Origin: an uncultured Bacilli bacterium
GTDB taxonomy: Bacteria > Bacillota_I > Bacilli_A > RF39 > UBA660
Assembly: GCA_944363925.1 (NCBI GenBank)
Contig: CALVVS010000001.1
Coordinates: forward strand, 450 to 64,449
Reading direction: 5' to 3'
Length of the DNA: 64,000 nt
Both the position numbers and the translations under genes were made by a program. Of the stretch, positions 21,354 to 26,828 are shown piece by piece. Numbering within the stretch: position 1 is the stretch's first letter; each line of letters begins with the position of its first letter. Below the pieces are notes generated by a model that was not told the DNA's origin, made no database searches, and saw only the letters and a program-made list of their open reading frames with translations.

Positions 21354-22433
21354 TTACTTTCTGTGCGCATACTCTTCTTTAACCTCATCATTACTAATTC
21401 CAAACCTTTTTAAAAAGTTATTACCAGATAAAATCAAATAATTAAACCCTTTATGGTCTAAAGTCACCTTATTAAAAATCAAATAATTCAAACGCGCATA
21501 ACTAAGTTCAGCTCCTTGAATTAAATAAGAAGGCCTTTTTAATATCTCTCTTTCTAAAGAAACATCCATCAAAATATCTATTTTTTTATTCAAAGTACTA
21601 ATCGAATAACTATATACATTTGGCAATTTTAAAGTAATAAAAATAGTCTCCTCAGCGGAATATCCCTTACTTAAAAAACAATTAAAAGTCTCTTTTATAT
21701 TCTCTAAACTTAACGTATAAATAGCTGGATTAACACCTGTAACTATATTAATCTCATCTTCACTATATCCAAACTCTTTTAAACACTGTCTTTTACTTTC
21801 CATCCTCGAAATATTCATCACAATAATATTTGAATTTCGGTAAATCATCTTAGCTAATCTATCAGTATCATAACCTTTTGAAAGTAAATAATCATAATTT
21901 TTCTTTAAAAGCTCCAAACTACAAGTATAAATCATCGGCGAATCTTTAATTATTTTATTAATTTCCTTATCATTAAACCCTAAATCCTTAAAGAAATTCC
22001 TTTTATCATTAATTGCATCTACAGATAAACTAAATAAACTAGGAAGCATCACCGTAAATTTATGAACCATACTATTAGAATAACCATAACCTTTTAAAAG
22101 CTCTAACTTACTTAAAATAAGACCCTCGCTAATAGTTAGTAAAGCAGGTAAAATAATAACCATATTTTTCACTTCAGCCTCGCGATATCCAAGTAACTTC
22201 AAAAAGCTAAAACGTTCATTTAACGTTTCAGCTGGATAATTAAACAAAGTTGGATTTAAAGTAGTCATTAAAATAATTTGTTTATTATCATATCCTCTAC
22301 CTTTTAAATAATTAAAAGTTTTAACAACTTTCTTCTCTAAAGTTTCTCTAGCAAGCCTTTTAACCGCATGACTATTAATAATTTTCTCTTGAGCACGCTT
22401 ATCATACCCTAAATTACTTAGTACATCTGACAT
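21354..22433 (-). CDS. mTERF-like helical repeat protein (putative nucleic-acid-binding)
   Basis: At least eight tandem roughly 35-aa repeats of the form L(K/L)xxG(Y/F)sxxxIxxIIxxxPxLLxxSxExLxxxxxFL, for example LKEFGYSEDEINIVTGVNPAIYTLSLENIKETFNCF. This matches the mTERF motif. Confidence 0.6.
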   Translation of the reverse strand: MSDVLSNLGYDKRAQEKIINSHAVKRLARETLEKKVVKTFNYLKGRGYDNKQIILMTTLNPTLFNYPAETLNERFSFLKLLGYREAEVKNMVIILPALLTISEGLILSKLELLKGYGYSNSMVHKFTVMLPSLFSLSVDAINDKRNFFKDLGFNDKEINKIIKDSPMIYTCSLELLKKNYDYLLSKGYDTDRLAKMIYRNSNIIVMNISRMESKRQCLKEFGYSEDEINIVTGVNPAIYTLSLENIKETFNCFLSKGYSAEETIFITLKLPNVYSYSISTLNKKIDILMDVSLEREILKRPSYLIQGAELSYARLNYLIFNKVTLDHKGFNYLILSGNNFLKRFGISNDEVKEEYAHRK

Positions 22434-22860: not shown

Positions 22861-23052
22861 TTATTGGCAAGTTCCCTCGCCTGGCTTAGACCCTTCGACA
22901 TATTCTTTATCGATAAGTTTGCAAGATGTTTTTGTCATAGAGTCTTGAAGATAGCCCCCCAATAGTTTGACTAAACTAACGACTACTACACTAATAACCG
23001 CTATGATTAGTAAATATTCTACTAGGGCTTGACCTTTATTATTTAATTTCAT
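22861..23052 (-). CDS. flp: Flp/Fap-family (Tad-type) pilin, 63 aa. Start at MKLNNKG with RBS GGAGGG; the ORF track starts further upstream.
   Basis: MKLNNKG-QALVEYLLIIAVISVVVVSLVKLL carries the Flp prepilin motif G-xxxxEY followed by a hydrophobic helix. Confidence 0.75.
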   Translation of the reverse strand: MKLNNKGQALVEYLLIIAVISVVVVSLVKLLGGYLQDSMTKTSCKLIDKEYVEGSKPGEGTCQ

Positions 23053-23188
23053 AACACCCTCCACAAAAATATCATAACTTACATCAATTATAATTTTTTT
23101 TGGAAGAAAAATCAACCCCATTAGCAAAAAACAAACAAATTTAAAGACAAAAAAATAAAAATGTGTTAAGATAAATTAGGTGAGAAAA

Positions 23189-23479: not shown

Positions 23480-24361
23480 TTAAGAACTTACGACATATGG
23501 ATCAGATTGTGTTCCACTTCCAGTCAAAGTAATTTCAGAACTTAAATATAAGACTGGGCGAACCGCAGTGTTCGTATCATCCGCACCGTAGTAGTCGTGG
23601 ATGCTGCCACTCTCAACACAGAACACAGTGTAAGAGTTGTCAGAATTAGGTGACAAAGTCCACCAATAGTCATTTATATACATCCAAGTTGTATTTTTAC
23701 ACTTATTATAATTATCATCGTTTAAATTAAATGAACCACATTCACTTTTATTGCTATTTGTTCTGATATATTCACTTACTGTAGGTAAAGCTACTTTCCC
23801 GTTCAATTTTATTCCGTTTTCATTATTTATTTGTTGAGCTAAATCATTATTATCATTTGTTATTGTACCGATACTCCAGTCTTTTGCTACAATCTGACTT
23901 TTAGCAGTGACATTTAACCCATTATAATATGTCCCATTTAAGTATGTATTTAAACTTGCTGGTCTGGCCCAATTACTAATATTAGAACTATCCCACGCCA
24001 TCCTTTCTATATATGCTTGTCTCATTATTTTTATTGTCCCATCACACTCAACTGAGATTATTCTCCATCCAGCAGTTTCATTATTAAAAGTGACATAATT
24101 ATTTGGATTAGCTCCTGTAAAGAAATAACGACACTCATAAGGGTCTTTCTCTAAATCTGCATCTTCAATTACTTGATCACCAGCACTTGGAAAACACACT
24201 CCATATAATTCATCGATAGCTCCTTGCACATTGGTACTTGAAAGACCACTTTCTTTATTATCATATGTAACATCATTAGATGGAAAATATGTCTCCGCAT
24301 ATACAGCAACTATTCCTACTGACACAAAACCAAGTATAAAACCAATCAAATATTTTTTCAT
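23480..24361 (-). CDS. Secreted Asn/Tyr/Trp-rich protein of unknown function, preceded by a coupled 8-codon uORF and a long homopolymeric tract
   Basis: Signal peptide MKKYLIGFILGFVSVGIVAVYA. It has an NVQGAIDELYGVC motif and no strong RBS of its own. Confidence 0.6.
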   Translation of the reverse strand: MKKYLIGFILGFVSVGIVAVYAETYFPSNDVTYDNKESGLSSTNVQGAIDELYGVCFPSAGDQVIEDADLEKDPYECRYFFTGANPNNYVTFNNETAGWRIISVECDGTIKIMRQAYIERMAWDSSNISNWARPASLNTYLNGTYYNGLNVTAKSQIVAKDWSIGTITNDNNDLAQQINNENGIKLNGKVALPTVSEYIRTNSNKSECGSFNLNDDNYNKCKNTTWMYINDYWWTLSPNSDNSYTVFCVESGSIHDYYGADDTNTAVRPVLYLSSEITLTGSGTQSDPYVVSS

Positions 24362-24384
24362 AAATTCTTTTGCTTTTTTTTCAT
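24358..24384 (-). CDS. 8-codon upstream ORF (MKKKQKNL) whose TGA overlaps the ATG of the secreted-protein gene (ATGA)
   Basis: RBS GAGAGGTG 6 nt upstream of the uORF ATG. The downstream gene lacks its own SD, which suggests translational coupling. Confidence 0.4.
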   Translation of the reverse strand: MKKKQKNL

Positions 24385-24424
24385 TTCTGACACCTCTCTA
24401 TCTTATCCAATATCAAGATATCAC

Positions 24425-24458
24425 AAAAAAAAAAAAAAAAAAAAAATAAAAAAAAAAA
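24425..24458. repeat. Homopolymeric tract A22-T-A11 (poly-T on the coding strand of the downstream gene), 64-97 bp upstream of the secreted-protein start
   Basis: Directly visible: tcac-a22-t-a11-caag. Confidence 0.95.
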
Positions 24459-24530
24459 CAAGTAATATTTTAGATAGATAATCACTCGTTTTTTAGACCA
24501 ATTTTACACTTAAACCAAAATAAATTTAGA

Positions 24531-24548
24531 ACAAAATTAGTGCTAAAC
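24531..24548 (-). terminator. Rho-independent terminator of the rplU-prp-rpmA operon
   Basis: ttagtg-ctaaa-cactaa hairpin followed by a T-run on the minus strand. Confidence 0.55.
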
Positions 24549-24553
24549 ACTAA

Positions 24554-24838
24554 TTATTCAGGATAAACACTCACCTGTTTACGGTCACGTCCTAAACGTT
24601 CAAATTTAACACGGCCAGCAATTTTAGCAAATAAAGTATCGTCTTTACCAATTCCTACATTAACACCAGGATAAATTCTTGTACCTCTTTGACGATATAA
24701 AATAGAACCACCTGATACAACTTCGCCATCAGCCGCTTTTGCTCCTAATCTTTTAGATTCAGAATCACGTCCATTTTTAGTAGAACCTTGTCCTTTTTTG
24801 TGGGCAAATAACTGAATATTTAACTTCAATAATTCCAT
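24554..24838 (-). CDS. rpmA: 50S ribosomal protein L27, with the N-terminal Prp-cleaved extension typical of Firmicutes
   Basis: [32 protein letters not shown]. Confidence 0.95.
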
Positions 24839-25437: not shown

Positions 25438-25470
25438 ACTTTCTACCTCCTTTTTCCTAAGACTCGCCAT

Positions 25471-25543
25471 TAAGGTAAAGTAAAACTTTTTTTAACCTTT
25501 TTTGTGCGGTTGTAGATGGAGATCTACACATTTACAAATTTTA
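25471..25543 (-). ncRNA. Putative L21 operon leader (structured 5' UTR)
   Basis: gtagatggagatctac inverted repeat upstream of rplU. Firmicutes commonly carry an L21 leader here. Confidence 0.3.
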
Positions 25544-26242
25544 TCACAATCTTCCTTTAAAGTCAAACCTTTTTGAAAGCCTATCACCTTCAGATATATA
25601 CTTTTTACCATCAAAAAACAAATGACCATAATCTCTTCTCATAACCCGCATATCCATCGAACTAATCTTCATCCTTTTTTTAAAATGATATCTCTTTAAA
25701 TATCTCTCAAGTAAAAACCGGTTAAATAAACTTTCATGCTCTTTAATTTCTTTTATAACCCGCATAATTAAAAATAAACAAATTAAAAATAATATCAAAC
25801 TAAAATTAGCTTCCATAATCAAAATTAAAACACTTAAAATAGATATCAAAATCATCCATAAATGACTGCATTTAAAACTAACTACCTTATTAAAAAGCAA
25901 ACTCAGTATCTTAGAGCCGTCCAAAGGAAATATCGGTAGTAAATTAAACCCTAAGATAATTAAACTATAATAAACAAAATCATCCACCCTAAAAAAATAA
26001 TAAACTATCAAAGTAAAAACAATTTGAAAAATTGGGCCCATTATTACAATCAAAAACTCTTCCTTAATTGGCCTATTCAAATCCTCATGAAAAATAGTTA
26101 TTCCACCAAAAGGAAGTATCAAAACCTTCTCTATCTTCCACCTAAATAAAATCCCCATCAAAATATGTCCAAGCTCATGCACAGTAATAATCAAACTAAA
26201 CCAAACAAACCCCTTAAAATGCCCAGTAAACGCAGAAGCCAA
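25544..26242 (-). CDS. M50-family (site-2 protease) membrane metalloprotease, SpoIVFB-like
   Basis: HELGH zinc motif in a TM helix, LDG motif (PIFPLDGSKIL). It is immediately upstream of rplU, as spoIVFB is in Bacillus. Confidence 0.8.
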   Translation of the reverse strand: MASAFTGHFKGFVWFSLIITVHELGHILMGILFRWKIEKVLILPFGGITIFHEDLNRPIKEEFLIVIMGPIFQIVFTLIVYYFFRVDDFVYYSLIILGFNLLPIFPLDGSKILSLLFNKVVSFKCSHLWMILISILSVLILIMEANFSLILFLICLFLIMRVIKEIKEHESLFNRFLLERYLKRYHFKKRMKISSMDMRVMRRDYGHLFFDGKKYISEGDRLSKRFDFKGRL

Positions 26243-26270
26243 AGCCGAGATATAATAAAAAAGGTGAATT

Positions 26271-26828
26271 TTAAATATATTTCTTATAATCTAAAATCTC
26301 CCCTTCTTTTGTAAAAACCAAATATAATTTAGACCCATCAGCTTCACCTAAAATATCGCCAGCCTTTAAATAATCATACATACTAACCTTTATCTCCTTA
26401 ATATTCGCATACCATACCTCAACCCCATCTCCTTGCTGAACAACCACCGTATTTCCGTAACCTTCCTTCTCACCAGTAAATACCACTATTCCACTTTTAA
26501 TAATCGGTATCACATAATTTTCCGAAACCTTAAGCGAAACCCCATCTTTATATGGATCGCTTTCCTCGTATTCTATTTTAGACGCTGAAACAAGCGAAGT
26601 CTGCTCACTTCCAGTAAGTGGTAAAGAAGAGCCAAATAACTTCTCATAAACCGTATTTACCTCTCCAAAACTAAAATTATTCTTAAAAACATATTTGTAT
26701 AAATTTTCTCTTAAACTAGGACTTCCTTTAAGCGCAATCAAAACCCCTAAAAGTATAATAACACACACCAAAAACTTACTAAAAACTTTGCTTAAAAAAC
26801 TAACTTTTCGAAAAACTTTCTTCGCCAT
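26271..26828 (-). CDS. Membrane-anchored degenerate M23/LytM-domain protein, SpoIVFA-like
   Basis: N-terminal TM. C-terminal GIVVFTGEKEGYGNTVVVQQGDGVEVWYANI resembles the M23 fold but has Q-Q in place of the metal-binding His. Confidence 0.6.
   Translation of the reverse strand: MAKKVFRKVSFLSKVFSKFLVCVIILLGVLIALKGSPSLRENLYKYVFKNNFSFGEVNTVYEKLFGSSLPLTGSEQTSLVSASKIEYEESDPYKDGVSLKVSENYVIPIIKSGIVVFTGEKEGYGNTVVVQQGDGVEVWYANIKEIKVSMYDYLKAGDILGEADGSKLYLVFTKEGEILDYKKYI

Follow-up and report, generated by a model that had tools for sequence, protein, structure and literature searches.

A length-variable poly-T tract as a candidate phase-variable promoter spacer of a DUF6273 gene in an uncultured Bacilli bacterium

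Results

The window, i.e., the whole 64 kb stretch of DNA analyzed here, comes from an uncultured Bacilli bacterium and carries on its minus strand a gene for a DUF6273 C-type-lectin-like protein (23480..24361, 293 aa; the closest intact orthologs have 301 aa). A homopolymer tract upstream of this gene is probably a slippage-prone promoter spacer that switches its transcription, and this phase-variation reading is supported by comparison among strains and across the gene family. A first-pass annotation of the window had already proposed a switch at this point, composed of the tract and a coupled 8-codon upstream open reading frame (uORF). The tract, its position and its variability are borne out by the results below, whereas the short open reading frame (ORF) is better explained as the product of a 1-nt deletion.

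Variation of the poly-T tract

On the plus strand, the tract consists of A22 at 24425-24446, a T at 24447 and A11 at 24448-24458, flanked by ATCAC and CAAG. The A22 and A11 runs are the two longest homopolymers of the window, the next longest having 9 nt, and under an independent and identically distributed model only about 6e-6 runs of at least 22 A are expected in it (the window's G+C content is about 31%). Because the 293-aa ORF is on the minus strand, this hypervariable homopolymer tract (24425..24458, minus strand) reads T11-A-T22 in sense orientation, a total of 34 nt located 64-97 nt upstream of the ATG. The tract and its distance to the protein start are as annotated in the first pass, and only the strand required correction, given that the gene runs on the minus strand. 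A homopolymer of about 8-9 nt or more was taken as long enough for frequent slippage at a simple sequence repeat (SSR), and both T22 and T11 of the window exceed this length, as do the T16-20 of most orthologs and paralogs.

The tract belongs to a cassette of ~90 nt, which comprises an A-run and hairpin ending in CTTG, the poly-T, G-TG-A-TATCTT, a Shine-Dalgarno (SD) sequence and the ATG. Written as a module, it is (A-run) C[G/A]AGT[G/A]AT - loop - ATTACTTG - poly-T - G(TG) - TGATATCTTGATATTGGATA..ATAG(G)AGAGG - N4-7 - ATG. The cassette is common to the window copy, its orthologs and paralogs elsewhere, which have rpmE (L31), a DUF87 gene or a 114-aa ORF as their upstream neighbor, and only a subset of the family has it. 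Wherever the pattern is present, it is directly 5' of a family gene and on that gene's strand. The window yielded one match, versus 0 expected by chance, and neither a second family copy nor a second cassette copy was found in it. In its degenerate form, the pattern gave 0 matches in JGI metagenome contigs and 0 in IMG/VR viral contigs, from which we take it that JGI lacks this lineage and that phages do not carry the cassette.

Tract lengths could be read in 30 cassette copies and were drawn from SPAdes, megahit, hifiasm and canu-type assemblies. At the rpmA locus, to which the window copy belongs, the tract has 34 (window), 16, 17, 17, 18, 19 (four copies), 20 (two copies) and 7 nt, and at least 16 nt at one contig end. 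At the rpmE locus, six contigs encoding an identical 304-aa protein have tracts of 19, 17, 7, 7, 6 and 6 nt, and the complete HiFi metagenome-assembled genome (MAG; locus L009) has one of 17 nt. The DUF87 locus presents tracts of 16 and 18 nt, along with at least 17 and at least 28 nt at contig ends, and the other cassette copies have 18, 17, 17, 8, 8 and 7 nt and T5-A-T23. Taken together, the 30 copies have tracts of 6-8, 16-20 or at least 28 nt. A degenerate copy, L107, has T19.

Three other assemblies (L081, L091 and L092) present 0 mismatches to the window over 100 nt upstream and 41 nt downstream of the tract, yet their tracts are T16, T19 and T19, versus 34 nt in the window. The more divergent rpmA-locus orthologs have T17, T17, T18, T20, T20 and T7, and the linker that joins the tract to the -10 box varies too (GT, GTGT or GGTGT). 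Judging from these assembled alleles, the tract is hypermutable between strains, as had been claimed for it; invariance across isolates, which the first-pass annotation had named as evidence against a switch, is not what the assemblies present. Some short-read contigs end in the tract itself (L001, L087, L095 and L096), and such breaks are compatible with length heterogeneity. More generally, many short-read contigs (L001, L086, L087, L089, L090, L095, L096, L101, L103 and L106) stop 20-110 nt before a family gene, at the tract or cassette or close to it, and the assembly of these genomes appears to break systematically at DUF6273-family loci.

Homopolymers across the DUF6273 family

The scan of GTDB genomes returned 204 related stretches, the closest of which are all in "uncultured Bacilli" MAGs, and a search of the protein database at E <= 1e-20 yields 1852 relatives. 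In the complete 1.52 Mb HiFi MAG OZ007022.1, at least 14 copies are scattered round the chromosome. When 468 kb of GTDB family loci were surveyed for long tracts, defined as at least 11 nt for A/T and at least 9 nt for G/C, all 16 of 16 were located just upstream of a family gene or in its first codons, the gene start of L048 being unconfirmed.

Several of the upstream tracts lie in what look like promoter spacers. L070 presents TTGACT-cc-G10-taTGcTATTAT, with a spacer of 17, and L079 presents TTGACT-ca-G9-tattaTGtTATAAT, with a spacer of 19; in L051 a G10 is contained in a spacer of 20, and in L067 the arrangement is TTGACA-N7-G14-TATTCT. Poly-T takes the same place in L056 (TTGCG-T18-GATATAAT) and L048 (TTGC-T18-GATAAACT). 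Coding tracts are exemplified by runs of G9-G11 within the first 5-12 codons of distant DUF6273 genes from other Bacilli MAGs: L075 has G9 and is in frame, its homolog L062 has G11 and is out of frame, L057 has G9 where G10 would be in frame, and L073 has G9 and is out of frame. As a sequence pattern, this family-wide association is the classical signature of contingency loci, and no other indirect evidence speaks as strongly for the window tract having a regulatory role.

Two further observations were made among the relatives. L056 (2248-) encodes a 485-aa family member that starts with MKKKAFTLIELIAVLVILAILA, a type-IV-pilin/pseudopilin-like N-terminus, so pili may carry some of the DUF6273 proteins. 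Upstream of paralogs that lack the poly-T cassette is a divergent gene for a protein of 144-162 aa (L004 2437-2871, L022 2430-2873 and L108 588-1076, all on the minus strand), and the call for this divergent gene in L108 and L109 matches the Pfam helix-turn-helix (HTH) families HTH_3 and HTH_19, which suggests a second, regulator-based mode of control within the DUF6273 family.

Promoter assignment

The probable placement of the tract in the promoter region, as proposed in the first pass, is in line with what lies next to it. Immediately 3' of the tract is a conserved candidate TRTG extended -10 element, T-G-T-G-A-TATCTT (24415..24425, minus strand), in which TATCTT occupies 24420..24415 and the last T of the tract falls at -17. 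The sequence TGATATCTT is present in 30/30 cassette copies and the full GTGATATCTT in 29/30, the exception being L019, which starts at TGATATCTT. TATCTT matches the hexamer at T1, A2, T3 and T6, and paralogs without the cassette have TGTGATATAAT, TGATATAAT or TGTTATACT at an equal distance from the ATG. A TGnTAnnnT motif ending 24-40 nt upstream was found in 15/38 paralogs, versus 0.04 expected per gene. Since the extended -10 boxes of the paralogs sit equally far from the start, TATCTT at 24420..24415 was assigned as the -10, with a predicted transcription start site near 24408 and a leader of ~24 nt that would contain the conserved SD. TAAGAT/TAGAAT, located just before the SD, was also considered as a -10 and was rejected, because the transcript would then lack the conserved SD.

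The sole -35-like element is the TTG that ends the hairpin (CTTG). In the T16 allele, this results in TTGTTT-17 nt-TATCTT, and in the 34-nt allele the TTG lies near -52, the position assigned to the tract being the spacer from -17 to about -33. The mechanism proposed is that the tract would be the slippage-prone spacer of a sigma-A-type promoter, inside the ~90-nt cassette. Slipped-strand mispairing would alter the distance from the upstream TTG and the invariant AAAATATTACTTG block to the extended -10, and this change would switch or tune transcription, independently for each copy, in the manner of Mycoplasma hyorhinis vlp or Helicobacter pylori sabA. The window allele is an outlier, with 34 nt, an interrupting A and a 1-nt deletion in codon 3 of the gene, and it is probably an OFF or decaying copy, both expanded and frameshifted.

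Several points weigh against this mechanism. A consensus promoter scan with a threshold of at least 4/6 matches in the -35 calls nothing in the intergenic region, either for the window or for the T16 allele; the -35 TTGTTT matches at 3/6 positions and the -10 TATCTT at 4/6. Most observed tract lengths yield TTG-to-(-10) spacers of 18-21 nt rather than 17, hence a rule of the kind "ON = T16-17" is a guess. Since promoters with an extended -10 can dispense with a -35, the length might be nearly neutral, or might act as a rheostat. As for the alleles, no assembly gives a homopolymer of 16-20 nt to better than a base or two, and most alleles were found by exact lookup of the intact protein, which biases the set as regards tract length versus gene integrity. 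Finally, L001, the sole other contig retrieved with the 293-aa allele, ends 2 nt into the tract.

This last point bears on whether the 34-nt interrupted form is an artefact of assembly or sequencing, the true allele being an ordinary T16-20, an explanation that we consider possible, if doubtful, and that is compatible with the other readings. Several short-read contigs break at the tract (L087, L095 and L096), and the only other interrupted tract among the retrieved cassette copies, the T5-A-T23 of L019, is likewise at a contig end. Conversely, L095, which comes from the same sample as L001, has a run of at least 28 T at a different cassette locus, which shows that very long alleles exist, and the unusual tract co-occurs with a G deletion that is present in both contigs with the 293-aa allele.

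The rheostat is a variant of the proposed mechanism, in which tract length sets helical phasing or distance and yields graded expression, AAAATATTACTTG being an UP-like or activator site and the extended -10 being essentially independent of a -35. The -35 is indeed a poor one, and paralogs commonly have an extended -10 box but no clear -35 hexamer; moreover, the lengths are spread over 16-20 nt with no single peak, the hairpin 3' arm is invariant while the 5' arm is variable, which suggests a constraint on DNA, and sabA provides a precedent, with a promoter poly-T of 13-19 nt (PMC2715451). We nonetheless take graded control to be unlikely here, in view of the bimodal distribution of 6-8 versus 16-20 nt plus very long outliers, which resembles discrete states, and of the poly-G relatives, which sit in true -35/-10 spacers.

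Hairpin upstream of the tract

Directly 5' of the tract is a terminator-like element composed of an A-run and a stem-loop (AAAAAACGAGTGAT...ATTACTTG, 24459..24494, minus strand), whose 3' end is CTTG and which is conserved before the tract in the cassettes of other loci. The window hairpin folds as RNA at -11.1 kcal/mol (z = -4.8), the A-run pairing with the first Ts, and over the sequences folded the block reaches -10 to -11 kcal/mol, with z of -3.6 to -4.8 versus shuffles. The element is rich in A and T, its loop is large (11-14 nt), and its layout is that of an intrinsic terminator in an AT-rich genome. A consensus terminator scan of the window and of the T16 allele did not call this intergenic hairpin, because the stem has fewer than 3 G-C pairs and the threshold is at least 3. 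The 3' arm (AAAATATTACTTG) is invariant, and the 5' arm varies by one-sided G-U/A-U changes only; given the invariant 3' arm, double-sided covariation is impossible. The asymmetry between the arms suggests that the 3' arm is also under constraint as DNA.

At every cassette locus checked, the upstream gene is co-oriented with the family gene (rpmA, rpmE, the DUF87 gene and the 114-aa ORF), and two of these upstream genes encode ribosomal proteins. The hairpin likely has two roles, namely insulation from read-through and supply of the element upstream of the spacer. In the proposed mechanism, the hairpin and the first Ts would also stop transcription that reads through from the strongly expressed ribosomal-protein genes upstream, in which case expression would depend on the switchable promoter.

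These features could also be taken to mean that the poly-T is a mere terminator U-tract insulating the gene, its excess length and its variation being neutral by-products of slippage in an AT-rich genome that leave expression unaffected. The stability of the A-run and hairpin before the tract and the co-orientation of the upstream genes favor such a tail, as does the coexistence of short T6-8 alleles with intact genes. However, termination needs only about 7-9 U, whereas 16-20 T are kept in orthologs and in paralogs at unrelated loci. Neither does a neutral tail account for the invariant extended -10-like box directly 3' of the tract, nor for the poly-G of distant members, which lies inside canonical TTGACT/TATAAT spacers without a hairpin and cannot serve as a terminator tail; the stems, in addition, are GC-poor and fail the terminator scan. 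We regard a purely neutral U-tract as quite unlikely.

The short upstream reading frame

The first-pass annotation had described an 8-codon ORF with a good SD, whose stop codon overlaps the start of an SD-less protein gene, and all of these elements are present in the sequence. The short ORF encodes MKKKQKNL* (24358..24384, minus strand), its TGA overlaps the main ATG (24361..24359) as ATGA, and the main ATG has no SD-like purine run at a proper distance. The SD AGAGAGGTG (24391..24399, minus strand), which is conserved in all cassette copies, serves the ancestral start codon at 24384..24382.

What did not hold is the interpretation of this arrangement as a regulatory device. A protein database entry of 301 aa, P0001, starts with MKEKAKEF-MKKYLIG and otherwise matches the window product with 100% identity. 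It is encoded at locus L081, where the genes follow the order of the window, i.e., murF, M23 peptidase, M50 peptidase, L21, Prp, L27 and the gene. Aligning the two, ATGAAAGAAAAAGC in L081 corresponds to ATGAAAAAAAAGC in the window, one G of codon 3 having been lost, and a tblastn search of the window with P0001 supports a frameshifted N-terminus. The same deletion occurs in L001, a separate ENA contig, and only the window and L001 carry it. The other orthologous alleles that include the 5' end (L082-L092) have one continuous ORF of 301 aa, or 303 aa in one case. Paralog ORFs, in turn, start 4-11 codons (usually 7-8) upstream of the residue aligned to the window's M1, with N-termini such as MKEKIKKI or MKKIKEF. 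Because orthologs are continuous and the window lost one G, the short ORF is not a conserved regulatory device; read in this way, the "uORF" is the frameshifted N-terminus of the gene, a remnant of the ancestral MKEKAKEF. The loss created an A8 run (T8 on the plus strand, 24374-24381). Pure A8/A9 slippage was ruled out as the origin of the frameshift, given that it is the G of AAAGAAAAA that was lost, i.e., a point deletion.

A designed translational coupling, in which the SD-bearing 8-codon uORF controls the SD-less main ORF, would be in keeping with the ATGA overlap and with the SD that only the short ORF has, and termination-reinitiation at such overlaps is plausible. Yet every ortholog with its 5' end is continuous from the SD-served ATG, the single-base deletion is confined to the window and L001, and the paralogs also start upstream of the window's M1 equivalent, all of which make such a design highly improbable. 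The ancestral Met9 coincides with the new stop codon overlap (AUGA), and accidental reinitiation at this point is possible, yielding a protein that would lack 8 residues and keep the MKK and the hydrophobic core. The window allele would thus produce at most an N-terminally shortened protein.

Other lesions were seen at the 5' ends of family genes. Indels of 1 nt are found in the A6/A7 runs of L035 and L038, 14 nt of the start region are tandemly duplicated in L031, and in L107 the T19 cassette is followed by a destroyed SD and ATG. L004 and L030 look split, the query being matched in two separate pieces in each. For annotators, "uORFs" and truncated starts in this DUF6273 family are to be treated as frameshift states and not as separate genes.

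The DUF6273 product and the neighboring genes

The 293-aa ORF (24361..23480) is downstream of rplU-prp-rpmA and in the same direction. Its product matches Pfam DUF6273 (PF19789) with 38.2 bits, above the gathering threshold of 23.5, and a search of PHROGs returned an unannotated family only. The N-terminus presents a K-rich n-region, a hydrophobic helix and an AVYA-ET motif (MKEKAKEFMKKYLIGFILGFVSVGIVAVYA followed by ETY), with no lipobox Cys, and is read as a putative signal peptide or membrane anchor. The AlphaFold2 model, built with 36 homologs and having a predicted local distance difference test score (pLDDT) of 81, has a helix at the N-terminus (residues 2-32), joined by a poorly modelled linker to a globular domain. 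Its best Foldseek match is 9qa6, the Thomasclavelia ramosa immunoglobulin A (IgA) peptidase (E = 2.8e-7), followed by C-type-lectin-like folds of the CLEC/LOX-1 type with weak E-values only. The N-terminal domain of the T. ramosa IgA peptidase is annotated as DUF6273 (PMC12402451; PDB 9qa6), and the DUF6273 domains of phage proteins targeted by diversity-generating retroelements (DGRs) have been described as C-type-lectin-like (PMC10743442). Signal- or anchor-bearing lectin-like products belong to a class of genes that is usually phase-variable (PMC10743442).

Upstream, the co-oriented rpmA (ribosomal protein L27; 24554..24838, minus strand) is the last gene of rplU-prp-rpmA, for which Rfam detects the L21 leader at 25450-25521. 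Another hairpin, the first one after rpmA, directly follows the rpmA stop codon (24533..24559, minus strand; ATTAGTG-TTTAG-CACTAAT, then TTTTGTT), folds at -9.4 kcal/mol (z = -3.1) and is probably the terminator of the rpmA operon. Between 24250 and 24650, Rfam yielded no known RNA at the gathering threshold or at E <= 1.

Downstream, the nearby "Flp pilin" of the first-pass annotation, which was to add to a theme of surface variation, is an 88-aa ORF (22861-23127, minus strand), called as 86 aa and without a Pfam family by gene callers. The theme loses its footing, as the Flp_Fap match of 21.5 bits is below the cutoff of 32.2. Past this Flp-like ORF and a 125-aa ORF, i.e., two genes downstream of the DUF6273 gene, is a 359-aa protein (21354-22433, minus strand) with a strong mTERF domain (Pfam E = 1e-33, in three stretches), and this position is kept in all orthologous contigs. 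Given that mTERF proteins are typical of organelles, a bacterial copy is unusual.

As for the window in general, its plus strand has 13572 C versus 6129 G, a GC skew of about -0.38, and its minus strand holds 45/52 of the ORFs of at least 150 aa. SpoIVFB/SpoIVFA-like M50 and M23 peptidases are encoded at 25544-26828, and L107 carries a SpoIIGA-type peptidase U4 plus a sigma factor (1130-2619). On these genes, the lineage may sporulate despite the ~1.5 Mb genome of a related complete MAG. The window also contains murF, mreC and mreD, by which the host appears to be walled.

Discussion

Phase variation through homopolymers is textbook knowledge in Neisseria, Haemophilus, Campylobacter, Helicobacter and Mycoplasma. 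The likeness to Mycoplasma Vlp and Vsa drawn in the first pass is apt for Vlp; Vsa of Mycoplasma pulmonis switches by site-specific inversion and not by poly(A).

For Mycoplasma hyorhinis vlp, phase variation through a promoter poly(A) tract was described by Citti & Wise (1995), as summarized in PMC10502178. The vlp system shares with the present case a surface-protein multigene family in a low-G+C lineage of Bacillota or related to Mollicutes, a promoter for each copy, an A/T tract of roughly 17 nt whose length is changed by indels, and the organization of each gene as a separate transcription unit. The differences are that no sequence homology exists, the domain here being the lectin-like DUF6273; that the product is not a lipoprotein, as it has AVYA-ET and no lipobox Cys; that it has no C-terminal tandem repeats; that the host is apparently walled; that the tract here is fused to a terminator-like hairpin; and that the ON/OFF behavior of the present gene is a proposed one. 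Given the missing lipobox and repeats and the different fold, the locus is not, by these features, a member of the Vlp family, though it may work like vlp.

In Helicobacter pylori, sabA has a promoter poly-T of comparable length plus CT repeats in its 5' coding region (PMC2715451). Both cases present a poly-T of similar length beside the core promoter, here a predicted one, of an adhesin-type gene, and in both the tract differs in length between strains, for sabA also within strains (PMC2715451). Both also have a second repeat switch in the coding region, which here would take the form of poly-G in distant members and of 1-nt indels in 5' A-runs. The two belong to different phyla and protein families, and the position of the tract differs as well: that of sabA is upstream of the -35 and acts as a rheostat, whereas the tract here would fill the spacer from -17 to about -33.

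The distant family members resemble yet other systems. In Neisseria porA and opc and in Bordetella fim, expression is controlled by homopolymers (PMC5084427, PMC1891110). L051, L067, L070 and L079 are like these genes, with G9-G14 between TTGACT/TTGACA and a TATAAT-like box. In porA and opc the tract is a poly-G and in fim a poly-C, located in or next to the -35/-10 spacer. Those are, however, genes of Gram-negative pathogens, and the window copy has poly-T with only a TTG as -35.

Regarding the protein, the DGR-targeted receptor-binding proteins of gut phages (PMC10743442) and the T. ramosa IgA peptidase (PMC12402451) contain the same Pfam domain and, as with the family studied here, are ligand-binding surface modules that are diversified. 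Unlike in the phage proteins, diversification here would proceed by paralogy together with the switching of repeat tracts; the gene has no DGR in view beside it, and the cassette is absent from IMG/VR viral contigs.

In the literature searched for DUF6273 and homopolymer phase variation in gut MAGs, no account describes this family or lineage as phase-variable. The mechanism class, i.e., SSR promoter phase variation, is already known, and its proposed case in uncultured gut Bacilli and DUF6273 genes is new to that literature.

If the switch is real, the signature hairpin-poly-T-GTGATATCTT, or TTGACT-poly-G-TATAAT, would serve for finding such loci in metagenomes, and the tracts may help explain why short-read assemblies break at DUF6273-family genes. 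A wider picture can be put forward tentatively, with somewhat less than even credence. Walled, apparently spore-forming, genome-reduced gut Bacilli related to Mollicutes might run a Mycoplasma-style "phasome", with dozens of C-type-lectin-like paralogs per genome, each switched by a homopolymer. The forms would be poly-T cassettes, combining terminator U-tail and promoter spacer in one, poly-G spacers and poly-G first codons, a second subset being under divergent double-HTH regulators. This would amount to an undescribed system of antigen or receptor variation, plausibly directed against phage or host IgA. Should the switch prove real, this large lectin-like family would be a variable surface or receptor repertoire of these organisms.

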